In this document: positions 6,821 through 28,751 of the stretch, piece by piece
Layout of the letters: each line of letters starts with the position of its first letter
Numbering within the stretch: position 1 is the first letter of the stretch
Origin: an uncultured archaeon
GTDB lineage: Archaea; Nanobdellota; Nanobdellia; Pacearchaeales; GW2011-AR1
Direction of reading: 5' to 3'
DNA: 44,490 nt
NCBI GenBank assembly: GCA_903873955.1
Contig: CAIQQL010000116.1
Coordinates: 1 to 44,490 of the forward strand
Made by a program: the position numbers and the translations under genes
The notes under the pieces: model-generated
Told to the model about the DNA's origin: nothing
The model's database searches: none
The model's input: the letters and a program-made list of their open reading frames with translations, nothing else

Positions 6821-6857
6821 GTAATTACACAGTGACAACAAAGGAAAGGTTTAAATA
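6821..6857 (+). promoter_or_regulatory. Bipartite promoter-like element (GTAAYTAYA - 14/15 nt - GAAAGRTTTAAATA), copy 1
   Basis: 'gtaattacacagtgacaacaaaggaaaggtttaaata'. The TATA-like TTTAAATA ends 45 nt before the ATG at 6903. Near-identical elements occur at 15028..15065 and 16586..16622. Confidence 0.45.
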
Positions 6858-13701: not shown

Positions 13702-14904
13702 ATGACCCTAAAAGGGTTGGAAAAAACATACATGGCAAAAGTAGCACCAGTTTCAATAAAGTACATGGTACATGCATCCTTCAAAGCAGAAGGACCACTT
13801 GAAAAGCCAGATGTCATTGGTGCCATATTTGGTCAGACTGAAGGTCTTTTAGGGTCCGAGCTTGAGATGCGCGAACTTCAAAAAGAAGGCAAGATTGGGC
13901 GCATTGAAGTCAATCTTGAGATGGTTGATGGGAAAAGCATTGGAGATATCCAAGTCCCAACTGCCCTTGATAAGTCAGAAACAACCATCATTGCCGCAGC
14001 ACTTGAGACCATAGACAGAATTGGTCCTACTGAAGCTAGTATCCAGGTCACCAAGATTGAGGATGTACGAGGCAGCAAGAGAGATTTCATCATTGAACGT
14101 GCTAAAAAGTTGCTTGAAGGCATTGATGGCAGCAGCGATTTCAATGATATCAGCAAGACCTTAAAGGAAGAGTCTAGGGCTGAAAAGATCCAAGAGTATG
14201 GTCCTGAACGCTTACCTGCTGGAGACCTTAGTGGCCCTGAAGTCATTGTTGTTGAAGGTAGAGCAGACGTAGTCAATCTCCTTAAAAATAGAGTGAATAA
14301 TGTCATAGGTATGAATGGAACCAAGCTTCCAGCTGAAATCGCCAAACTTGGCGCCACAAAGGAGATAACACTCTTCGTTGATGGCGACCGTGGCGGAAAG
14401 CTTATCGCCCGAAATGTCATCGACAATGCAAAGATTGCAGCTGTCGCAATGGCTCCTGATGGCAAGGAAGTCGAAGAACTTACTGGAAAAGAAATTCTCA
14501 TGGCACTTCGAAAGAAGACCACCGTCGGGGAATTCTTGCGCAAGCTCAAATATGGTGATGATGATCTTTCTGCACCAGAAGCACCTTCCAGTGTTGAAGT
14601 CTCAGCCCCCACTGCAGCATCTATCGCAGAAGCCAAAGAATCCATGAAAAAGGCCTATGAGAAGATAAAAGGCACCAAAAATGCTGCACTCTTAGACAAT
14701 AGTTTTGACATCATCCAGAAAGTAAGCCCACGGGAGGTCCCAAGATCATTACGAGAATCAAAGAAAAAAGTCTATGCTGTCCTTATTGATGGCATCGCGG
14801 TTTCAACAACCGTCTCTGCCTGTGATGAGTCAGGCGTCGCATTCCTTGGAGCCACTAATTTTTCAGGTGTTGACGGGGCAAAAGTCAATCTTGTCAGCCT
14901 TTAA
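13702..14904 (+). CDS. dnaG: Archaeal DnaG-type primase/exosome-associated Toprim protein
   Basis: 'KYMVHASFKAEGPLEKPDVIGAIFGQTEGLLG' and the Toprim motifs 'VVEGRADVVNLLK' and 'FVDGDRGG'. The start could instead be the ATG at 13732. Confidence 0.9.
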   Translation: MTLKGLEKTYMAKVAPVSIKYMVHASFKAEGPLEKPDVIGAIFGQTEGLLGSELEMRELQKEGKIGRIEVNLEMVDGKSIGDIQVPTALDKSETTIIAAALETIDRIGPTEASIQVTKIEDVRGSKRDFIIERAKKLLEGIDGSSDFNDISKTLKEESRAEKIQEYGPERLPAGDLSGPEVIVVEGRADVVNLLKNRVNNVIGMNGTKLPAEIAKLGATKEITLFVDGDRGGKLIARNVIDNAKIAAVAMAPDGKEVEELTGKEILMALRKKTTVGEFLRKLKYGDDDLSAPEAPSSVEVSAPTAASIAEAKESMKKAYEKIKGTKNAALLDNSFDIIQKVSPREVPRSLRESKKKVYAVLIDGIAVSTTVSACDESGVAFLGATNFSGVDGAKVNLVSL

Positions 14905-15027
14905 TCTTACATTCAGTCATTAATTAACCGCATCATTTAAACAACATACTTTTCAAATATTTTTCTATACTCTCCAGACAATCATGCACCTACAATACTT
15001 CAGTTCAATCATCGAAATCATGTCAAT

Positions 15028-15065
15028 GTAACTATATAGTGACAACATAACGAAAGATTTAAATA
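15028..15065 (+). promoter_or_regulatory. Bipartite promoter-like element, copy 2 (no ORF behind it)
   Basis: 'gtaactatatagtgacaacataacgaaagatttaaata'. It shares GTAAYTAYA, the 10-mer AGTGACAACA and GAAAGRTTTAAATA with copy 1. Confidence 0.45.
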
Positions 15066-15089
15066 GTCTTTATACCTTAGTTAATTAAT

Positions 15090-15690
15090 CACCTCTTTTC
15101 CCAGAGGGGGACGCTGAGTTCATCTATTTATAGCGGACTTTGCCTCCCCTTCATGGGTTTTAATCACTTTCACCTCACTTCATACTCATCAACACCAAAG
15201 TGTTATTCCCCTCTAGAATGGGGCACGAAACACGCTTGTTTTCTCTCAAGGAGAACCCTAAAAAGTTGCTCCCTAAAAAGAATGGATGTATACCTCCCGT
15301 CTAAATTCGGGCACGAAATACACCAATGCTTGCAGCACCTGCAAGAACTCTGGGAAGAGTACACGAGAGAAAAAAGGTGTTGGTGGGTTCATACTCAACG
15401 AGGGGGGTCATTCTGATCTAGATTTCAGCACGAGACTCCCTTCAGAGGCACTTTTGCGCGGAAATCCTATCTAAACTTAGGCACGATTCGCCAAAATGCC
15501 CAGAGGTCCATCAGTAGCTGGAGGAGCGGCAAAGCCATAACCTCCTGGCCTGAATGCAGGGAAATTTTAATAATGACCCTGCAGGACACCTGGAAACTTC
15601 TTATCACTATTCAGCCAGAATCAATTAGACGAAAGAGTTAAAAGCAGGACAACTCCCTATCTTTAAGATGGAACGTTCTTTTGTTTCTAT
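15090..15690 (+). ncRNA. Candidate structured non-coding transcript (boundaries approximate)
   Basis: It lies downstream of a consensus TATA element. Only short ORFs are present, and the repeat units fall in different frames. It has several hairpins and a T-rich run at 15676..15689. I saw no match to RNase P, SRP or tRNA signatures. Confidence 0.3.
15208..15488 (+). repeat. Array of 4 (+1 looser) hairpin units: [4 nt]-TCTARAWT-[4 nt complement]-CACGA
   Basis: CCCC-TCTAGAAT-GGGG-CACGA (15208), CCCG-TCTAAATT-CGGG-CACGA (15296), CTGA-TCTAGATT-TCAG-CACGA (15413), CCTA-TCTAAACT-TAGG-CACGA (15466). A looser unit, ACTC-TGGGAA-GAGT-A-CACGA, starts at 15347. Confidence 0.7.
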
Positions 15691-15804
15691 TGGGCCCTCT
15701 CCTCGCGGTAAATCCAAGGGTGTTCGGCATCCTTTCCCCAATATTTCACGCATATATTTATACAAAAGTCCTGGAGACTCCTTCTAGAGGACGTTTAAAC
15801 TCTC

Positions 15805-16113
15805 ATGGCCTCCCCACCCCGAATACTTGAATGTAAACCTTTTGGCGAGGAGGGTAAATATCTTATGACGGTTGAATATCTTGTTCCTTCCGGTAAAATG
15901 TTTAGAAAGCCAACAATCACCAAAAGCCAGTTTTACGGTACAGGCATCCTATGGTATAATTACCCGGCAGGGTCTTGCTTACCAGAGAGACTAGAACAGA
16001 TTCTGACCGGCCTGTTTTTCGAGGCCCTTAAAAATGAACGATTCAGGAATGCCCAGGCCATAGAGCCAGGTTCAATTATTCATACACCTGTTTCTTCAGG
16101 CTACCCTGCTTAA
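15805..16113 (+). CDS. Hypothetical small protein (102 aa)
   Basis: An ORF with the TATA-like 'atatttatac' (15754..15763) 42 nt upstream. I recognise no family. Confidence 0.4.
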   Translation: MASPPRILECKPFGEEGKYLMTVEYLVPSGKMFRKPTITKSQFYGTGILWYNYPAGSCLPERLEQILTGLFFEALKNERFRNAQAIEPGSIIHTPVSSGYPA

Positions 16114-16187
16114 GCAGAGGTTTTCTGTTTTTTAGGCATCTCCTCAAAGATCAGATGCCAGAATGTCAAAAAATAGAGGCGCTTTGT

Positions 16188-16508
16188 TTACCACAGCTCA
16201 TCATGGTTTCTAATGGGCGTAGAATGTCCTGGGAAACGGGGGGCAGGTTCAATCATATCATCCAGATAACCTGGCAGGGCCTCAAGATATCTCCTTCCTT
16301 CTTCAGTTTCCAAGAGAGGGTCAAGAAACGCTTGATGCATAAATCCCTTATGCGGATCGTAGAGTAAACCCAGATGCCCAAGACCAATAGGTTTCCCAGT
16401 AAAATAAGTCAGAGTTCTCTGCATAGTCCTGATGGCATGGGCATGTGAACCTGCAAGGCCGTATCCTTCAAGTCCGCCCTCATAGTTACGGTTTAATTCG
16501 TTATCCAT
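16188..16508 (-). CDS. Hypothetical small protein (106 aa)
   Basis: The ATG at 16508 ('MDNELNRNYEGG') is preceded on the minus strand by 'gctttaaatagg' (16541..16553). I recognise no family. Confidence 0.45.
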   Translation of the reverse strand: MDNELNRNYEGGLEGYGLAGSHAHAIRTMQRTLTYFTGKPIGLGHLGLLYDPHKGFMHQAFLDPLLETEEGRRYLEALPGYLDDMIEPAPRFPGHSTPIRNHDELW

Positions 16509-16585
16509 TGTATTTTTTGGTGGAAGCACAGACCGTCATGACCCTATTTAAAGCTATTGAATTTTAACTCAGTTATTATTTTGTT

Positions 16586-16622
16586 GTAACTATAAAATAG
16601 TAAAAAAAGAAAGATTTAAATA
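16586..16622 (+). promoter_or_regulatory. Bipartite promoter-like element, copy 3 (drives the AAG-like/SNF2 operon)
   Basis: 'gtaactataaaatagtaaaaaaagaaagatttaaata'. The TATA ends 21 nt before the ATG at 16644, so the mRNA is probably leaderless. Confidence 0.5.
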
Positions 16623-16643
16623 TGAAAAAAGACTAAAAAAAAG

Positions 16644-17144
16644 ATGGATTATAAGACATTTTTTAGCAGAAAAGCTGAAGAAGTAGCGCAGGATCTTTTA
16701 GGATATTTTGCCATACGCAAAAATGATTCAGGGATATTTGCCGCAGTAATAACCGAGACCGCTGCCTATCGCGGAGGCAAGATCACCCCTGCACGACAGG
16801 GTATGCTTTACGAGCCAGGCAGGATATTCCTTATGCCTAACCGAGGTCATCTCCTGCTCAATATTGCCTGTCAGGGCGATATGCCTGCCTGTGTCGAGCT
16901 CAGAGAAATCTCATTTCCTTTCGCACTTGCCTCCCCTCCCAATTTCCCCCGTCCGCGAAGAACCATAAATGGGGCAGGGACCCTCAGCAAATTCTTAGAA
17001 CTAGACGCTCAAATGGACAATACCCTTCTTGGAGATGCATTTTCAATCTCAGACACAAAGTACAAAACCGGAATGACGTCGAGAATCGATACAACTCTGG
17101 AAGATCAAGCCGATAACCTCATCGGAGTCTACCGCTTTTCATAG
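16644..17144 (+). CDS. 3-methyladenine DNA glycosylase (AAG/MPG, PF02245-like) fold protein, probably non-catalytic
   Basis: 'FFSRKAEEVAQDLLG', 'ITETAAYRGG', 'GMLYEPGRIFLM' and 'NIACQGDMPACVELREI' run parallel to human AAG 'FF..PAV.LARAFLG', 'VETEAYLG', 'GMFMKPGTLYVY' and 'NISSQGDGACVLLRALE' (recalled from memory). Confidence 0.65.
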   Translation: MDYKTFFSRKAEEVAQDLLGYFAIRKNDSGIFAAVITETAAYRGGKITPARQGMLYEPGRIFLMPNRGHLLLNIACQGDMPACVELREISFPFALASPPNFPRPRRTINGAGTLSKFLELDAQMDNTLLGDAFSISDTKYKTGMTSRIDTTLEDQADNLIGVYRFS

Positions 17145-21897: not shown

Positions 21898-22668
21898 ATG
21901 AGTATACGGTTTGGACCTGCTGGATTGGGTCCAGTAAACACTGCAAAAGAGATGCTTGAAAAACTGCATGGGCAAGGTCTCCAAGCCTGCGAGATCGCTT
22001 TCACCTATGGAGTCTATATCAAACCCGTAGATGCTGAAGAGATAGGAAAGATTGCGAAGAGCCTGGACATCGAGCTCAGCATCCACGCCCCGTATTTTGT
22101 CAATCTCAATTCAGATGATCCTAAGAAAATAGTCGCAACAAAAAAACGTATCCTTGATTGTTGCGAGATTGGAGAGAAACTAGGCGCAAAGATCGTCGTG
22201 TTCCATCCCGGCTATTACGGGAAGATGAAGGATGAGACTTATGACAACATCAAAAAAGGAATCCTTGAACTGCTAGAGGTCATTGAGAAGAAAGGATGGA
22301 AGATAAAAATCGCGCCTGAGACCATGGGAAAGATCAATGTCTTTGGAAGCATCCAGGAAATCTCCCGTCTTGCAAAGGAAACCGGATGTGCCTTCTGCAT
22401 CGACTTCGCCCATGTCCTCGCAAGGGATAAATCCGTCGATTATGCGCTCATTGAAAAGTTGTTTCCGCAAAAACAATGGCATGTCCATTTTTCAGGGATC
22501 ATCTATGGAGATAAAGGAGAAAAAGAGCATCGAATCACGGAGGAACAGGAATGGCGAGAACTCCTTAGCCATCTTCCCAAAGACAAGGAGATCCGCATCA
22601 TCAATGAGTCTCCCACGATGATTGAAGACAGCATTATGGGGCTTAAGATTTCTCAATCACTACCGTAG
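21898..22668 (+). CDS. nfo: Endonuclease IV-type AP endonuclease (xylose-isomerase-like TIM barrel)
   Basis: The pattern of metal-ligand segments is 'SIHAPY', 'VVFHPG', 'APETMG', 'CIDFAHV', 'HVHFSG' and 'INESP', in the order expected for the Nfo family. The ATG at 21898 follows the TTG at 21895. Confidence 0.65.
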   Translation: MSIRFGPAGLGPVNTAKEMLEKLHGQGLQACEIAFTYGVYIKPVDAEEIGKIAKSLDIELSIHAPYFVNLNSDDPKKIVATKKRILDCCEIGEKLGAKIVVFHPGYYGKMKDETYDNIKKGILELLEVIEKKGWKIKIAPETMGKINVFGSIQEISRLAKETGCAFCIDFAHVLARDKSVDYALIEKLFPQKQWHVHFSGIIYGDKGEKEHRITEEQEWRELLSHLPKDKEIRIINESPTMIEDSIMGLKISQSLP

Positions 22669-24407
22669 TGTGATGGTGCCAGGTTCCTCCTGTATGTTCC
22701 CATGGTCAGATGTGCTTTAAAAGCAGCTAATTGACGAGTGGAGATGTTATATGTTTGCACAATCTCTCCTTCGGAAAAAGACCCGTCAGCAATCAATTGC
22801 CCAAGCTCATGCTTTTCTTCCCTGGTTAATCTGCGCGTAGGATTAGTAGCAGGTGAGTTTCCTGCTTCGCGCCCATTCAATTCAGCTAGCGGATTTTCAA
22901 CTGGAGCTGAATCTTTTTGCAAGATAGCTCTCTCGAGAATACCTTCCTGGCAGTTATGTGAAGGGGTCCATCCTTGCCAGCGCCTCAGCCCTGCTTTAAT
23001 GCCTCCAAGTTCTCTTCCTGTAAGATGATACATCTCGAGAATCTCCGCGTCCGTCCTCCCGCTTTCAAATTCTGCACGAATTACTTCTGAAAGAGTTTGT
23101 GGCACGAGATCCTTACGGTCTGCCTTGACATATTCCAGCTCAGTCCTTAAAACCTGATTGTAACTATTGAACTTCCTATAAAACGCATCGCTGTTGCCCA
23201 TAAGATATACTCCTGGCATCCTCACTGGATCTTCATCGCTTTCTTCCTCATTTTTCAGCCGTTCCTGGTGCAGAGTGGCTGCAACCTTTCCACTAAGGAG
23301 GACAATATCGGGTTGAGGGATTTGACCATCAACCGGCGTCCGATCATTCAAGATTAGTCGCTGATAAACACAGTGGTGGTTTTCCCATCCAAAGCTGAGG
23401 TCTCTTTCTACACCTGCAAAAAAGTCAGGACGTTGCTGTAGCAGGATAAAGTCATAGAGCATCGGACTTCCGTTGTCTGAAACGTACCTTCCTTTTTCAT
23501 AGTCTGAGATAAAATAGGGTCGTTTCAGCGTCCCATTCTGCATGTATGTCAATATGCTGTTTCGCATCCCTTCATCACCTGGAAACTCCCCATCAAGAAA
23601 TATGGAAAGAAGAGTGTCAATTGCTCCTTGGGCAAAGGCAAAGAATTCCTTATGTGCTAAAGGATTTTTGATGACATCTTCCACTGGAACGTCATAATTC
23701 GACTGTTTATAGAATTCCCTGAAATACGGCGCAGCAATCAACTGCTGATAGGATTCCAGAGGGGTGTTTGATCCGGTTAAATAACGCAGTTTAAGACTGA
23801 TCATCTTGTCACGAATGGTGCCTAAATCCTCGGTGTCTTTGAGAAAATCGACAAATCTCATGTCGTTAAGGACACGCGCAGCTATCTTCTCATCTTGCCT
23901 TTCCAAAAATTTAAGCATCTCCCCTCCCTGGGTCAGAACGAAGGTATCAAGCACGTACTTACTCTGTCTCTTTTCCCCTTCACGAGATCCGTAAAAATTC
24001 GTACCGAGAACATAACGAGGACCAACCTTGTCACTGCGGGCAATCTCTCCTATGAGCAGGTCTTCTGCTGCCCCAAATTGCGACTGAAAGTCCAGGTTTA
24101 CAATATCAAAATGTTCCCGAGTCTGAGCAAAAAAGTCACGTGCATCACCTTCATAGAGATTTATACCAAGATTCTGCGCCCTGATCTGCGCCGCAACCTC
24201 AGGATTTCGTTCGATTCCATACACCCGATCCCTGCGAATTCCAAAACGATCATAGACGTCTTTAACTTCTAATGCCTCTTGTGCCGGAAAGCATACGACG
24301 CGCAAGCTTCGTCTTCGTTTGACATCAGGGTATGTCCTTTCAAGAAAGTGCAGGAACTCTTTACGATAGAGCCTTTTTGATTCAAAATCATAACTTGCCT
24401 TTTGCAT
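22653..24407 (-). CDS. Paralogue A: methyltransferase-like N-domain + two C-terminal HTH-like modules
   Basis: The ATG at 24407 ('MQKASYDF') matches the conserved paralogue N-terminus. Motifs 'LRVVCFPAQ', 'GIERNPE', 'FDIVNLDF' and 'YVSDNGSPMLYDF'. A degenerate module 'AEILEMYHLTGRELGGIKAGLRRW' precedes the terminal 'STRQLAAFKAHLTMGTYRR'. Confidence 0.7.
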   Translation of the reverse strand: MQKASYDFESKRLYRKEFLHFLERTYPDVKRRRSLRVVCFPAQEALEVKDVYDRFGIRRDRVYGIERNPEVAAQIRAQNLGINLYEGDARDFFAQTREHFDIVNLDFQSQFGAAEDLLIGEIARSDKVGPRYVLGTNFYGSREGEKRQSKYVLDTFVLTQGGEMLKFLERQDEKIAARVLNDMRFVDFLKDTEDLGTIRDKMISLKLRYLTGSNTPLESYQQLIAAPYFREFYKQSNYDVPVEDVIKNPLAHKEFFAFAQGAIDTLLSIFLDGEFPGDEGMRNSILTYMQNGTLKRPYFISDYEKGRYVSDNGSPMLYDFILLQQRPDFFAGVERDLSFGWENHHCVYQRLILNDRTPVDGQIPQPDIVLLSGKVAATLHQERLKNEEESDEDPVRMPGVYLMGNSDAFYRKFNSYNQVLRTELEYVKADRKDLVPQTLSEVIRAEFESGRTDAEILEMYHLTGRELGGIKAGLRRWQGWTPSHNCQEGILERAILQKDSAPVENPLAELNGREAGNSPATNPTRRLTREEKHELGQLIADGSFSEGEIVQTYNISTRQLAAFKAHLTMGTYRRNLAPSHYGSD

Positions 24408-25899
24408 CTTTCCCTCCAGTATATGTGCCCATGGTGTTATGTGCTTTGATGGCAGAAAGCTGTCCGCGGGTAATACTATAAGCGTCAAGAATTTCAGATT
24501 CATTGAAAGCAGGATCGCGCAACATCTGGGCAATCTCATATTTTTCTCTTTTTCCAAGCTTTCTTGGTGTGTGTCGCGAGATTATATCCCCCTCAGTCCC
24601 TTCTGAAGGAGACAGTCCATCTACTCTTTGCGCACTTGGCGATACAAGCAATCCTGGTCGTTCTGGAATGAGCTCAATGCGAGGGGCAAGAGGAAGGCGC
24701 ACAACCTGTTCCATATACTGATGAAGATATTCCATCCTTTTCACTAGTCTCTGTAGAGACCACCCTAGAGGATTTATCTTGACGTAGCAGTCATTGTTGG
24801 CATCAGCCTGTTTGAAGGAGAAAATGTCTGACAACCTCATTTTTATCCCTTCAGGGACCTGGGAAAAGCTGAAGAGATCCATCAGCATAGGGCATCCGCT
24901 ATTGCTCGTGTATTTGTATCGCTCAAAGGCGTTGTAATGATAGGACTTTTGCATTATTGAACCTTGTAAATGAAGCAAGGATCTTGCAAGGTCCGCAGGG
25001 ACCAATTGACTTAATTTATGGACCAATTGTGCATAACGGGCAGTGTAGTATCCTTGTTCATAGACCACCGGATCCTCCGAAAACTTCACATTGGCTCTGT
25101 CTGAAAGGCCGTTTAGTTTCCTAAGGAAATCCAGATCCCGTGTCGCAGGCAAATCATTTTTTACTCCTTGTATCACCGTTTCTTTATAGGGCTCATCAGA
25201 GAACATGCTTTTCCCCATAGGTCTGTTGATTGTCCCGCCCATAAATATGGTGACAAGCTCAGTCGTTATTCCATCACGAAGCCCTTCAAGATTCCCTTCC
25301 TTGCCCTGCCTATCCAACATCTGTTCAAGTTCAAGAAGTCTCTCAGCCCTAAACCGTTCGGTAGAAAAGTCATTATCGGGCCATGCTTCCATGAATTTTG
25401 CCTGACGCTGCTGATGCAAGAGCCTATTTGCAAGCAGCTTTTGCATACTCTCGCTTTCCCTTCTTCCAGAGTAGACAGTCGCAATGATTCCTTTGGGAGC
25501 AAGCAGTTGGCGTGAGGCGATATATTCGAGGGTACATGCTTCAGTGATTGTCTGCTGGCCTGTATAGTCTAGGCTGATGATATCAAACGGGGCTGGATTT
25601 GCGTGCAAAAAATACTGGTCCGCTTCTCTGCAGATTACTTCAATACCTAAGTTGGCCCTGCGCAACCGTTCAGCCTTTTCAGGGTCACGCTCGAGGCTTG
25701 TGACATGATTACGGGGTATACCTAAGACGTCACAAATCTCCTTGACTTCTATGCCTGCTTCCTCGACTGTTTCTGCTCCAGCAAAACAGAGATATCTCAG
25801 ATCCTGGACCCGTCTTTTCGGATCTTTGTTTTTCTCAGAAAAGACCATCTGTTTCATCCTTGCAAGATGCTTTGCTGGATCATTGTAGGATTTAGACAT
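24388..25899 (-). CDS. Paralogue B: methyltransferase-like N-domain + C-terminal HTH-like module
   Basis: ATG at 25899 ('MSKSYNDP'). Motifs 'LRYLCFAGA', 'SLERDPE', 'FDIISLDY', 'YTSNSGCPMLMDL' and the terminal 'TRGQLSAIKAHNTMGTYTG'. Confidence 0.7.
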   Translation of the reverse strand: MSKSYNDPAKHLARMKQMVFSEKNKDPKRRVQDLRYLCFAGAETVEEAGIEVKEICDVLGIPRNHVTSLERDPEKAERLRRANLGIEVICREADQYFLHANPAPFDIISLDYTGQQTITEACTLEYIASRQLLAPKGIIATVYSGRRESESMQKLLANRLLHQQRQAKFMEAWPDNDFSTERFRAERLLELEQMLDRQGKEGNLEGLRDGITTELVTIFMGGTINRPMGKSMFSDEPYKETVIQGVKNDLPATRDLDFLRKLNGLSDRANVKFSEDPVVYEQGYYTARYAQLVHKLSQLVPADLARSLLHLQGSIMQKSYHYNAFERYKYTSNSGCPMLMDLFSFSQVPEGIKMRLSDIFSFKQADANNDCYVKINPLGWSLQRLVKRMEYLHQYMEQVVRLPLAPRIELIPERPGLLVSPSAQRVDGLSPSEGTEGDIISRHTPRKLGKREKYEIAQMLRDPAFNESEILDAYSITRGQLSAIKAHNTMGTYTGGKDAKGKL

Positions 25900-27343
25900 G
25901 CTGCACCCCTCTGTCACGGTTGATCTTCACCCAGGCAGCAACGGAAGAGATCTTTCTTCTTTCCACTTCCCCATTAAAAAGCATGGCAATATCCTCAATT
26001 GTTGCCCCGCCCGCACGAAGCTCACGGATGACTTGTTTTTCGTCTTCTTGCAAATCCCGTTTTTTTCCAGCGAGAGGCATGGATTGGCCTGAAGTGCCCT
26101 CCAAAGGCAAAGGTCCCCCTTGGACAACCTCCAGATAGATCTTTTCTGATGCACTTGACCCTAGAAATATCCTTTTTTGCTGCTTCCCCAACTCATGGAC
26201 TTTCGTCTTTTTTTCAAAAAGGTTCAACCCCTGCTCCTTCACTTCTGCACGCAGCCTGTCACGAGACTCTTTCCGGTTTACCTCTGGCAGCACATAAATC
26301 GCAGTTTCATGCTTCCTCACCAGGAAGGAGCTTTCAAGCCTTTGTACAATACGAGCATGATTGTCAAGATAGAAGATGTCAAATAACATCGGCGTCCCGC
26401 TGTTGCTTACGTAACCGTACGATTCCAGGGACTCGACAAGATACGGCTTTTGATGGGCTATTAAAAATGCAGAAGCCAAGGGGAAGTCAAGACCTGCGTT
26501 GATCAGCGCTTCCCAGCGGGAAATATCTTCATTGATCCTAAACATCCTATGACGCATGACGTTCTCTTCCCTGTTCCTGGTAAACTTGATAGAGATGCAG
26601 GCTTTGTCCCTTTCATCACCAACTCTGGAAACCACATCAAGAAAATGCGCAGAGGACTCATCAAACCCGCCAAAACAGTCATAGAACTCCCTGCCCAGAT
26701 TTGCCCGACCCAGAGTGAAGGTGCCTGTAAGGATAGACCGTAAAACCTGTTCGCGGTCTTCTCTTAAATCGAACGATTGATTGAGCTGCGCAACTCTTGT
26801 CAGGGCAGGCTCATAATTCGTCAAGAGTTCCTGTAAAGACACTCCTCCTTTTACCATTGCACTATTGCATTGCAGCAGATCCTGCGCATCCTCATTTTCT
26901 CTTCGGGCCATGAAATTTGTCGCAATAATCCCTCGATTATCCAATAAGCCATCACTTGCGATAAGCTCCAACGCATAATGGCGCTCGGGAGAGAAGTAGG
27001 ATGTGTAGTCCAGATTAAAGACCGTCCACTTTCGTCCCTTTGACCGTGCAGTCTTCAAGACCTCCAGGTCTTTGGCGTGGATCAGCTCTATCCCTAAACC
27101 TGCAGCACACAGGCGATCATACTTTTCACGGTCCAGCTCCACTCCAGTGATATTTTCCCGAGGTATTCCTAAAGCATCGTAATATGCAAGTTCCAGTGCA
27201 ACTTCGCCATCCTTTTGGGCTCCGGGAAAACAAAATATCCGCACATCCTTCGGCTTTCGATAGGAGAGAATGTAATCTCTAATCCCGTTCTGCAGTTTTA
27301 CTCGGGTGATATCCTTTACTGTGTCATTATAACTTTTATCCAT
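25892..27343 (-). CDS. Paralogue C: methyltransferase-like N-domain + degenerate C-terminal HTH-like module
   Basis: ATG at 27343 ('MDKSYNDT'). Motifs 'VRIFCFPGA', 'GVELDRE', 'WTVFNLDY', 'YVSNSGTPMLFDI' and the terminal 'IEDIAMLFNGEVERRKISSVAAWVKINRDRG'. Confidence 0.7.
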   Translation of the reverse strand: MDKSYNDTVKDITRVKLQNGIRDYILSYRKPKDVRIFCFPGAQKDGEVALELAYYDALGIPRENITGVELDREKYDRLCAAGLGIELIHAKDLEVLKTARSKGRKWTVFNLDYTSYFSPERHYALELIASDGLLDNRGIIATNFMARRENEDAQDLLQCNSAMVKGGVSLQELLTNYEPALTRVAQLNQSFDLREDREQVLRSILTGTFTLGRANLGREFYDCFGGFDESSAHFLDVVSRVGDERDKACISIKFTRNREENVMRHRMFRINEDISRWEALINAGLDFPLASAFLIAHQKPYLVESLESYGYVSNSGTPMLFDIFYLDNHARIVQRLESSFLVRKHETAIYVLPEVNRKESRDRLRAEVKEQGLNLFEKKTKVHELGKQQKRIFLGSSASEKIYLEVVQGGPLPLEGTSGQSMPLAGKKRDLQEDEKQVIRELRAGGATIEDIAMLFNGEVERRKISSVAAWVKINRDRGVQHV

Positions 27344-28751
27344 GTTCTTCCCTCCGTCGATATGTCCCCATTGTCTGATGTGCCTTGAATGCTGCCAATT
27401 GCATCTTGGTAAACCCAGTATAACACTGTGCAATCTCTGCAGGAGTGAATCCTGAACTAAGCAGGTCAAGTACCTGGGCCTTGGAGAGTGTCTCCTTATT
27501 TCCAGATCCGGGCTGAGGAGATAAACCTGAAAGAGTATGATCTGCCGGGGAACCTAGGACCTTATTTTCTCCATAGGCCGAACCGAGATTCTCACGTGGC
27601 GCAAGGCTATTCCCGAAACATCTGTAACGGCAATTACAAAAGTCAGAAATAAGCCCAATGGCCTCTTTTTCAAGAGAGGGATGATACTTGCTTACTTTCC
27701 AGTCCAAGTTCTGAGGATCGATGGAAAGGCGGAAGGTCCTGGAAAGGTCCAGATGCTTGACATAGTTGATATCGACCAGCATAGCCGAACCCTTGTCCCC
27801 TATATAGCGAAGCCTTCTCTGATCAGCAACAAAATAGGACTGCAGGGGAGTGTAATAGAGCAACTCTGCTGCCAGCGTCAAGGTCTGCAGGCTGACATTG
27901 CCCTCTGGAAAAAGGTCGACATTTATGGCTTCACGTAATTTATCCTTCAGAAAAGGCATGGCATAAAAAGTATCGATTGTCTCCTGACGGGAAGGAAGTC
28001 CTCCACTGCCCAATTGATAATTGTCCTTTGCCCCTCCGATAATATCCTGTCCAACAAAATACGTGCGTGCAATCTTTGCAGTCTCATTACCAGGAGCCCT
28101 TCTGAGCTGCTCATCTTGCCACACCAGGAAAGCATCAAGAAGATCGCGGTCTTTCAAAAAATAAGGATGAATCTGCCGGTTGTGAATTCCATCAATCAAG
28201 ATTGAGCAGATATTGCGGGAAAGCAAATTTGAACGGTCCTTGATCGTACCCGCGCCTCCCTCTTCCTCCTCGCAGAAATCCCTATGTGCCGCCTCAAACC
28301 AGGACTTGGCATACCCGCTTTCCCTCATTCCCAAGTACCAGGTGGCCAATATCCCTTTCTCACCCAACAGCTGTCTTCCCGCAATTGTTCGCAATGCATT
28401 GCGCTGTTCAAACCCAAACGGAGCAAAGCCATCAATGTTGATGATGTCAAAAGTCTCGGAAGTGGTCTCAAGAAATTCATCAATAGAAACAGGCTTTGGA
28501 GGAAGCCGTACTCCCCAGCCCTGGGACTGTATTCGCCCATAGGTTTGAGGGTCATTTTCCAGACAGAGAATATTACCGCGGGGAACCCCCAGACGATCCC
28601 ATACCTGCTCAAGCTCCAGGGATTGATGCCCGAGAAGCGTCAAGACACGTAGGCCTTTTCTTTGCGAAGGCTTAGGATAGAGATTGGTCGTAAATCCTGC
28701 CAGGATCCCTCTTGCCAATGTTTTCGTGCTATAATTATAGGTCTCTTTCAT
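27336..28751 (-). CDS. Paralogue D: methyltransferase-like N-domain + C-terminal HTH-like module
   Basis: ATG at 28751 ('MKETYNYS'). Motifs 'LRVLTLLGH', 'CLENDPQ', 'FDIINIDGFAPFG' (reminiscent of Trm1 'IDLDPFGSP'), 'YIGDKGSAMLVDI' and the terminal 'TKMQLAAFKAHQTMGTYRR'. Confidence 0.7.
   Translation of the reverse strand: MKETYNYSTKTLARGILAGFTTNLYPKPSQRKGLRVLTLLGHQSLELEQVWDRLGVPRGNILCLENDPQTYGRIQSQGWGVRLPPKPVSIDEFLETTSETFDIINIDGFAPFGFEQRNALRTIAGRQLLGEKGILATWYLGMRESGYAKSWFEAAHRDFCEEEEGGAGTIKDRSNLLSRNICSILIDGIHNRQIHPYFLKDRDLLDAFLVWQDEQLRRAPGNETAKIARTYFVGQDIIGGAKDNYQLGSGGLPSRQETIDTFYAMPFLKDKLREAINVDLFPEGNVSLQTLTLAAELLYYTPLQSYFVADQRRLRYIGDKGSAMLVDINYVKHLDLSRTFRLSIDPQNLDWKVSKYHPSLEKEAIGLISDFCNCRYRCFGNSLAPRENLGSAYGENKVLGSPADHTLSGLSPQPGSGNKETLSKAQVLDLLSSGFTPAEIAQCYTGFTKMQLAAFKAHQTMGTYRRREEHG

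Follow-up and report, generated by a model that had tools for sequence, protein, structure and literature searches.

Repeated covarying hairpin modules in a candidate family of structured noncoding RNAs from Pacearchaeota-type DPANN archaea

The window analyzed here is a 44,490-nt stretch of DNA (contig CAIQQL010000116.1) from an uncultured archaeon of the Pacearchaeales. At positions 13702-14904 it encodes an archaeal DnaG; its best relatives (up to 79% identity) carry the annotation Nanoarchaeota or Pacearchaeota. Other genes in the window code for an ABC transporter, IMP dehydrogenase, ADP-forming acetyl-CoA synthetase, methylpurine glycosylase, an SNF2-methyltransferase fusion, Rad50, RNase HII, and DnaK/DnaJ/GrpE. 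The GC content is flat, blastn against phage records detected no similarity, and the search of PHROGs returned generic helicase and primase matches only. The normal archaeal gene set recognized with Pfam and the lack of phage matches rule out a phage or island origin, and the ordinary cellular genes, flat GC content, and missing phage similarity together identify the window as a segment of a DPANN archaeal chromosome. Thus, the "adjacent island" assumed in an earlier reading of the letters (here called the original prediction) gives way to an ordinary chromosomal neighborhood.

Downstream of dnaG lies a gap of approximately 900 nt (14905-15804) with stop codons throughout all six frames. Within it are four hairpin units of a common form, consisting of T, a 4-nt arm, TCTARANT, the exact reverse-complement arm, and CACGA (consensus, T-CNNN-TCTARANT-NNNG-CACGA; Table 1). 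The perfectly complementary stems that differ between the four units, the T before each stem, a looser fifth unit, and CACGA-to-CACGA spacings of 88, 50, 67, and 53 nt had all been described in the original prediction, and we found each of them as described by reading the sequence, by pattern scans, and, for the fifth unit, in the predicted fold. The pattern TCNNNTCTARANTNNNGCACGA matched four times in the window and not once in any of 100 dinucleotide-preserving shuffles, and scanning both strands of the 44-kb window yielded no further example of an arm, the unit loop, the complement, and CACGA. By our own arithmetic, a perfect 4-nt complement arises by chance with a probability of (1/4)^4 per unit, or about 2e-10 for four units. 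Since every arm begins with C, which pairs with the G preceding CACGA, three positions per unit truly covary. The degenerate fifth unit is located on the 3' side of a multibranch junction in the fold and was not reported by covariance model R1 up to E = 5; hence, the only feature it shares with the other units is CACGA beside a helix.

Compared with the first unit, the other copies have 67 to 81% identity, and the distances between successive starts are 88, 117, and 53 nt. This lack of identity and regularity, along with the absence of a CRISPR match in Rfam, speaks against a CRISPR array. A ToxI-like type III antitoxin RNA was likewise rejected, since the units are neither identical nor tandem and no toxin-like neighbor was found. 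Both classes had been set aside at the outset, and rightly so.

Table 1. Features of the RNA locus in the window
Feature	Position	Strand	Evidence
Archaeal BRE/TATA promoter AAAGATTTAAATA, with GACAACA before it	15053..15065	+	Motif match, 12 related loci
Conserved RNA 5' end AUCACCUCUUUU	15088..15099	+	Invariant in alignments A1 and A3
P2 long hairpin (CCCA-G-AGGGGGA ... UCCCCUUC-A-UGGG)	15100..15157	+	RNAalifold, single-sequence fold
Long-range domain with 13-bp closing helix (15184-15196 with 15376-15388)	15184..15388	+	MFE and centroid structures agree
Module 1: outer helix, hairpin 15208-15223 (CCCC/UCUAGAAU/GGGG), CACGA 15224-15228	15198..15237	+	Pattern, fold, covariance model R1
Unit 1: TCCCC-TCTAGAAT-GGGG-CACGA	15207-15228	+	Sequence read, pattern scans
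Module 2: outer helix, hairpin 15296-15311 (CCCG/UCUAAAUU/CGGG), CACGA 15312-15316	15283..15325	+	Pattern, fold, covariance model R1
Unit 2: TCCCG-TCTAAATT-CGGG-CACGA	15295-15316	+	Sequence read, pattern scans
Degenerate fifth unit: hairpin ACUCU/GGGA/AGAGU (15347-15360), then A, CACGA 15362-15366	15347..15366	+	Sequence read, fold
Module 3: 5' AUU, hairpin 15413-15428 (CUGA/UCUAGAUU/UCAG), CACGA 15429-15433	15394..15447	+	Pattern, fold, covariance model R1
Unit 3: TCTGA-TCTAGATT-TCAG-CACGA	15412-15433	+	Sequence read, pattern scans
Module 4: outer helices, 5' AAU, hairpin 15466-15481 (CCUA/UCUAAACU/UAGG), CACGA 15482-15486	15448..15499	+	Pattern, fold, covariance model R1
Unit 4: TCCTA-TCTAAACT-TAGG-CACGA	15465-15486	+	Sequence read, pattern scans
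3' structured domain: two hairpins within a closing helix	15500..15593	+	Fold; sliding-window z = -3.0
Possible oligo-T termination site TCTTTTGTTTCT	15677..15688	+	Inferred from the first T-rich run after the structured part

Folded as RNA, positions 15150-15620 of the plus strand reached -155.8 kcal/mol (z = -6.2), a value that none of 100 shuffles matched, and the reverse complement (minus strand) gave z = -1.5. Extending the fold to 15085 again resulted in z = -6.2, and a sliding-window scan limited the structure signal to approximately 15050-15650 on the plus strand. The MFE structure has 11 G-U pairs among 158, and the four unit hairpins are present in both the MFE and the centroid structures. 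In the fold, every unit is enclosed in a larger helix, which the original prediction had not noticed; rather than forming a free-standing array, the units are parts of one predicted folded transcript of about 500 nt. Each of these modules is composed of an outer helix, 2 to 3 unpaired 5' bases (AUU, CCU, AUU, and AAU in modules 1 to 4, the last one always U), the 4-bp stem, the 8-nt loop, the unpaired 3' CACGA, and the outer return strand. Covariance model R1 scored module 1 at 36.2 bits, module 1 being itself a training sequence of this model.

The long-range domain contains module 1 and a second helix of 9 bp (15239-15247 with 15365-15373), which in turn encloses module 2 and three small hairpins. 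Two G-U pairs in its 13-bp closing helix make this helix specific to the plus strand. Modules 3 and 4 follow as consecutive stem-loops, with a 10-bp outer helix (15400-15409 with 15434-15443) in module 3. The 3' structured domain was not found in the related loci described below and is specific to the window copy.

The promoter motif upstream of the structured region is the canonical one of this organism and is also found before protein genes of the window, at 6845 and 16610. The box at 16610 is separated by 22 nt from the start codon of the gene starting at 16644; carrying this spacing over to the box of the RNA locus predicts an RNA start at about 15088, at the A of ATCACCTCTTTT. The predicted start coincides with the conserved RNA 5' end.

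Two window genes were considered as anchors in the search for relatives. The 102-aa open reading frame (ORF) downstream of the locus is an orphan, with no homologue but itself among 5.8 billion proteins, and was rejected as an anchor. Synteny with dnaG was abandoned as well, as the closest DnaG relative (79% identity, L001 to L003) is followed by a different downstream region without modules. When JGI metagenome contigs were scanned for the two-unit pattern, 22 loci were obtained; in four of these (L040, L046, L048, and L052), the stems were perfectly complementary yet differed between units and were preceded by T. The other 18 were discarded as unrelated repeats, with two units of identical arms, mostly unpaired, and no covariation. 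The promoter and the 5' sequence of the window, ATCACCTCTTTT(TT)CCCRGAAGAGGAC...CCTCCTCTTCAYGGGTT, lie ahead of the modules in L040, L046, and L048 as well, and in these three loci the RNA gene is divergent from scpA.

Nine additional loci, L054 to L062, were then chosen only by ScpA homology (65 to 79% identity to ScpA of L048) and contig span. All nine, among them a marine TARA/NCBI lineage, have the promoter, 5' end, and P2 hairpin on the opposite strand upstream of scpA. Thus, these three elements were retained in 12 of 12 scpA loci, with contigs sampled from groundwater, caves, lakes, sediments, and marine sites. The scpA-linked RNA has conserved neighbors, rpo7-spt4-S24e-S27e on one side and hisS on the other. 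Logan contigs over the window and L046 revealed many more leader-sharing contigs with other flanks in groundwater and freshwater metagenomes; DNA runs containing the window locus were all identical, without variation. Scanning one genome per GTDB species for two units produced only unrelated tandem repeats. Among these, the Legionella match L006 proved on inspection to be a 55-nt tandem repeat without a hairpin, and matches in Scytonema and Treponema were judged unrelated by organism and spacing alone. In viral contigs, single-unit matches occurred at chance level, and no match to the leader pattern was found.

Strong folds were also predicted for the relatives, with z = -6.3 for L048, -5.4 and -6.1 for the 5' domains of L040 and L046, and -8.2 for the module region of L046. 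In the relatives, AUCACCUCUUUU forms the 5' strand of a terminal helix, P1. Its invariant 5' AUCACCUCUU pairs with 3' AAGAGGUGA in L048, L054 to L057, L060, and L061, where P1 closes the whole RNA of approximately 215 to 330 nt; in L040 and L046 the helix closes the 5' domain only. The window copy has the promoter, AUCACCUCUUUU, P2, and at least one module, by which we define the family, and differs from the relatives in not being located beside scpA, in having the most modules, and in its 3' part, where a search for the P1 3' strand found none and the best duplexes were internal.

In the first approximately 90 nt of 12 sequences, RNAalifold assigned 20 pairs to P2, and in nine of these both bases had changed in a compensatory manner. 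CCCA/UGGG, for instance, alternates with CCCG/CGGG, and four positions of the GAAGAGGA/UCCUCUUC helix are either A-U or G-C. Several alignment columns are rich in G-U. The window aligns across the whole 5' domain, with all P2 pairs kept through compensatory changes, and P2 forms in its single-sequence fold too.

The modules show a similar conservation of pairing. In the RNA regions of 13 loci, 21 of 26 TCTARA sites have flanks complementary at four of four positions and an 8-nt loop. These 21 modules comprise 11 different stems, with Watson-Crick pairs in 84 of 84 cells, and three of the four pairs change on both sides. Their covariation score was 0.88 versus 0.27 in shuffles, and none of 500 shuffles reached 0.88, but because the modules were chosen for pairing at all four positions, these statistics are biased upward and the fair figure is 21 of 26. 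Shifting the partner one to three columns out of register abolished the signal. An outer helix of 4 bp or more was present around 81% of the modules versus 43% of random positions. In 142 kb, the module covariance model matched only the RNA loci, plus two degenerate copies in L052. The 84 cells did not include a single G-U pair, which is uncommon where selection acts on RNA only, although wobble may simply not be tolerated in a 4-bp stem.

A coding reading of the locus was rejected on several grounds. Stops occur in all six frames, an 87-aa ORF over the units had no Pfam match, and substitutions preserve pairing, not a reading frame. The claim of the original prediction that selection acts on a hairpin rather than a peptide therefore holds up with more sequences: pairing is maintained through 11 stem sequences in 21 modules (from sites preselected for pairing), and the modules recur in related RNA loci, albeit in variable copy number.

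This variability is considerable. RNAs of L055, L056, and the marine L062 have no module with the canonical loop; one is present in L054, L058, L059, and L060, two in L048, L057, and L040, three in L046 and L061, and four, plus the degenerate fifth, in the window. It follows from L055 and L056 that the module is not essential to the RNA core. The loop UCUARANY is the most constant part of the module. The 3' tail is CACGA in 16 of the 21 modules (AACAG in two, and CACUG, AAG, and UACAA in the others), and the base beside the stem on the 5' side is U in 17. The marine L062 retains GCACG behind a 5-bp hairpin whose loop differs. Where modules are few or absent, the RNAs contain one or two copies of another element, D, with the layout GAUUC-UUCAAA-helix-[..AAGA-CCUU-loop-AAGG-CAC-GAG..]-helix-UAUCC-GAAUC, the upper helix of which covaries. 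D seems to substitute for the modules in some relatives. The modules also vary in position, lying either within the closed RNA or downstream of a small inserted ORF. The closed 5' domain and the modules of L040 and L046 are separated by an 88-aa ORF that has a strong Shine-Dalgarno sequence, and in a natural L046 variant, found in two groundwater runs, the 5' domain is joined to the modules without the 550-nt segment bearing this ORF.

None of the RNA classes that we compared accounts for these features. Rfam 15 gave no match at gathering score in the whole window. At E<=10, positions 14850-15850 returned only an 11-bit chance match, and the RNA regions of L046 and L048 only chance matches of at most 22 bits. 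The lack of a match argues against RNase P RNA, signal recognition particle (SRP) RNA, 5S RNA, C/D and H/ACA sRNAs, and known riboswitches. The defining nucleotides of RNase P RNA, SRP RNA, 5S, H/ACA, and C/D RNAs are also absent from the sequence, Rfam being the formal comparison for these classes, and those of tRNA-arm mimicry, T-loop, loop E, and preQ1-like pseudoknots are missing as judged from the sequence. An archaeal H/ACA guide has a hairpin with a pseudouridylation pocket and a K-turn and, about 14 nt from the pocket, an ACA box; the modules have no pocket, and there is no ACA box at the required place after modules or D domains. A literature search for published structured RNAs of DPANN archaea or Pacearchaeota returned nothing relevant.

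The closest structural likeness concerns the K-turn. A K-turn requires a 3-nt bulge, tandem sheared G-A/A-G pairs with GA on both strands, and A at position 1n. In the modules, the 3' strand, running from the stem G through CAC and GA into the outer helix, follows the order of the bulged strand (G-CAC-GA), with the C-stem closed by C=G. The 5' strands do not fit, and U at position 1n, which must be A, means that tandem sheared G-A pairs cannot form in the window modules. The modules thus fall outside the K-turn class, and their conserved 8-nt apical loop has no K-turn counterpart. In L054 to L056, the inner part of D has GA on both strands around the 3-nt CAC bulge, and its ..AAGA-CCUU..AAGG-CAC-GAG.. 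is a textbook K-turn arrangement. As a lead, the D element and the likeness between the module 3' strand and the bulged K-turn strand may point towards L7Ae-like or another ribonucleoprotein (RNP) protein.

Promoter, invariant 5' end, covariation, and predicted fold make it very likely that these loci represent a real structured-RNA family. We consider it probable that the modules are repeated parts of a promoter-driven structured noncoding RNA family of Pacearchaeota-type DPANN archaea, without a match in Rfam 15, and that they likely act as docking sites. In this proposal, the RNA would open with the invariant AUCACCUCUUUU, followed by the covariation-supported P2 and a variable number of modules, with four modules and the degenerate fifth packed into a compact RNA of about 500 nt in the window copy. 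Each module would present an outer helix, an asymmetric internal loop (5' WWU versus 3' CACGA), a 4-bp stem with a C-G bottom pair, and the loop UCUARANY. Autonomous conserved units that vary in number (0 to 4) and position are most likely multiple docking sites for one partner. Several modules may then offer such sites to a single trans-acting partner, probably an RNA-binding protein, that reads the loop and the CACG bulge, and the RNA would be a scaffold or a sponge-type ribonucleoprotein RNA. The docking mechanism itself we regard as standing at slightly less than an even chance.

It is also conceivable, although unlikely, that the modules engage in RNA-RNA contacts, with the 8-nt loops pairing with a site in a conserved trans RNA, GNUUUAGA, or kissing each other, in target capture or in multimeric assembly like that of large RNA-only complexes. 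The degenerate loop positions, R at 5 and Y at 8, are what pairing with U and G tolerates, and 6 of the 21 loops contain the self-complementary palindrome UCUAGA. However, most loops are UCUAAA, which is not self-complementary, and no conserved UUUAGA partner was seen inside the RNAs.

Rather improbable, too, is a role as cis-acting mRNA or untranslated-region elements, such as small tandem ligand-binding aptamers or elements for 3'-end stability or termination. The guanidine-II (mini-ykkC) riboswitch comes to mind here, as it too consists of small hairpins in tandem, with conserved loops, covarying stems, and variable linkers. The modules of L040 and L046 follow the 88-aa ORF, with a T-run after the last module, and those of L052 begin at or just past stop codons. 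However, the modules lack a preceding ORF in the window, L048, L054, L057, L060, and L061, and in all of these except the window they reside inside an RNA closed by the terminal helix. In L046, moreover, a separate promoter-like sequence for the downstream gene follows the T-run; the copy number varies between 0 and 4; and no other gene end in 142 kb has the motif. The guanidine-II riboswitch itself has an ACGR tetraloop and two hairpins directly upstream of the regulated gene and is bacterial, whereas the modules have 8-nt loops and a conserved 3' CACGA and occur in 0 to 4 copies, many within a closed RNA.

That the units function as single-stranded DNA hairpins, be it as REP-like elements, sites of IS200/IS605-type Y1 (HUH) transposases, or recombination sites, appears very improbable. 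Like REP and IS200-IS605 hairpins, they are intergenic hairpin clusters in the same orientation with a conserved flanking oligonucleotide, and the lack of any G-U wobble in the module stems would suit a DNA structure. L052 has an IS200-like Y1 transposase ORF (Pfam Y1_Tnp, E = 3.6e-15) approximately 500 nt from the modules and a partial third module copy 2.4 kb away, but this transposase is flanked by its own, different perfect palindromes. The window and 11 of the 12 other module-bearing loci lack a transposase: tblastn found no Y1 transposase in the window, L001, L040, L046, or L048, and none is present among the called genes of L054 to L062. REP stems are conserved in sequence and dispersed with RAYT or TnpA, whereas the module stems differ between copies, with 11 different stems, and the copies are confined to one RNA gene, in one orientation relative to the conserved promoter and the G-U-rich 5' domain. 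An attC core is missing as well; positions 15080-15700 contain no GTTRRRY, and its inverse, RYYYAAC, occurs once in isolation, at 15393, with no relation to the units. Least credible are binding sites for the neighboring HTH-module proteins, the SNF2-methyltransferase fusion, or the RHH protein, as first proposed from their physical proximity in the window only, since gene calls and Pfam placed none of these genes beside the modules in 12 other loci, where scpA, hisS, and rpo7-spt4-S24e-S27e are the neighbors instead, and the ORF directly downstream in the window is the orphan.

Docking sites on a structured noncoding RNA remain the preferred explanation, and several known RNAs offer parallels. 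Sponge RNAs of the CsrB/RsmZ type likewise have several small hairpins with a conserved loop, free stems, and variable copy number. They differ from the RNA described here, which has an archaeal host, the loop UCUARANY instead of GGA, an extra conserved 5' domain, a fixed genomic position, and no known CsrA-like partner. With OLE, GOLLD, ROOL, and raiA RNAs, the family has in common a conserved intricate fold, covariation, a fixed neighborhood, and no assigned function; it does not match them in Rfam 15, is archaeal and smaller (approximately 200 to 600 nt), and contains modular repeats. Structured noncoding RNAs with repeated hairpin sites are known already; what is new is this RNA family and its module.

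The module is a compact recurring motif, in which a 4-bp stem with an 8-nt loop follows an internal loop of 2-3 by 5; it is K-turn-like yet breaks the key rule of K-turns, which makes it of interest to RNA structural biology and a possible source of an orthogonal RNA-protein pair. The constant 5' domain and the repeated hairpins provide a direct experimental handle, with the module usable as bait for the partner.

It is tempting to speculate, although we hold this reading only tentatively, that the RNA is a housekeeping RNP RNA of Pacearchaeota-type DPANN archaea, with a 5' end that copies the anti-Shine-Dalgarno tail of 16S rRNA and a variable set of K-turn-like modules that would recruit or titrate several copies of one protein, possibly in ribosome or translation control. 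Such an RNA would be transcribed from one of the strongest conserved promoters, beside scpA, and would be an archaeal counterpart of bacterial sponge or scaffold RNAs. To our knowledge, almost no noncoding RNAs beyond rRNA and tRNA have been described in DPANN archaea. The genomes of these organisms are tiny and gene dense, and a strongly promoted, intricately folded RNA that is conserved at one locus in lineages from groundwater, caves, lakes, and the sea therefore likely plays a basic role in their biology.

The RNA gene begins with a 5' end, AUCACCUC, that is invariant between the window and the related metagenome loci in which the gene lies divergently upstream of scpA. 16S rRNA carries the identical sequence in the anti-Shine-Dalgarno tail of its 3' end (GAUCACCUCCU). 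Relatives pair it with AAGAGGUGA(U), which itself resembles a Shine-Dalgarno sequence, and thus the terminal helix of these RNAs looks like an intramolecular SD:anti-SD duplex.

A second conserved element, the D domain, is present in relatives of the window RNA. Its parts are a GAUUC/GAAUC helix, an internal loop that is conserved (UUCAAA/UAUCC), a covarying upper helix and a K-turn-like GA / CAC-GA loop, which CCUU..AAGG caps. In RNAs without hairpin modules, this domain seems to take their place.

Two related loci, L040 and L046, carry an 88-aa ORF nested between a closed 5' domain on one side and the modules on the other. It is 70% identical between the two loci, the ScpA proteins of the same contigs being 96% identical, and had no Pfam match. 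A variant without the 550-nt segment that carries this ORF was found in two groundwater runs. Between two modules of L046 lies a 38-nt stretch, CUGAGAAAACUUUCAGUUUUCGAGGUGCUCAAGAAC on the RNA strand, which is matched at approximately 85% identity by high-depth contigs with different flanks from several groundwater and freshwater runs. It may be a further widely conserved piece of the module RNA, or of a different RNA.

In L052, a metagenome locus found by a two-unit pattern scan, a 51-aa ORF precedes the modules, and after these lie an IS200-like Y1 transposase whose HUH motif is degenerate (H-I-Q), a secreted, Cys-rich protein of 477 aa and part of a third copy of the module. The 51-aa ORF is apparently truncated, and its N-terminus looks like the one of Mre11/SbcD. 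The flanks of the partial module combine those of the first and second, which suggests local rearrangement of this region.

Downstream of dnaG in the window, a weak second leader copy (15728-15850; TATA-like CATATATTTATAC, then ..CCTTCTAGAGGACGTTTAA..ATGGCCTCCCC) overlaps the start of an orphan 102-aa ORF (15805-16113). ORFs at 15805-16640, among them ones of 70 and 113 aa, gave no Pfam match, and a protein-database search with the 102-aa ORF returned no homologue; thus, approximately 1.7 kb past dnaG may be non-coding. The promoter consensus of the organism appears, from three sites, to be (GACAACA)..AAAG[AG]TTTAAATA. At 16610, the box lies 22 nt upstream of the start codon, implying a leaderless methylpurine glycosylase mRNA. 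Elsewhere in the window, four consecutive large ORFs (634, 509, 525 and 471 aa) overlap their neighbours by 25 to 170 nt; a Pfam search with them was essentially empty, with a weak HTH_23 match in one.

Coordinates of features in the window and in related loci
Feature	Locus	Position	Strand
Invariant RNA 5' end (also in L040, L046, L048, L054-L062)	window	15088-15099	
Shared promoter element	window	6845, 15053, 16610	
Four large ORFs	window	22653-28751	-
D domain	L054	2788-2730	-
D domain, two copies	L055	2786-2725, 2666-2607	-
D domain	L056	2707-2648	-
D domain	L040	6354-6302	-
D domain	L046	3166-3114	-
88-aa ORF, strong SD	L040	6273-6007	-
88-aa ORF, strong SD	L046	3082-2816	-
38-nt inter-module stretch	L046	2574-2611 (+ coordinates)	
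Modules, 51-aa ORF, transposase, secreted protein, partial third module	L052	7338-10015	-
RRM_1-domain protein gene	L054	475-828	-
RRM_1-domain protein gene	L056	247-624	-

RRM_1-domain proteins are unusual in archaea. Two relatives, L054 and L056, encode one adjoining the rpo7 operon, approximately 2 kb from the RNA gene, and this protein is a candidate partner.
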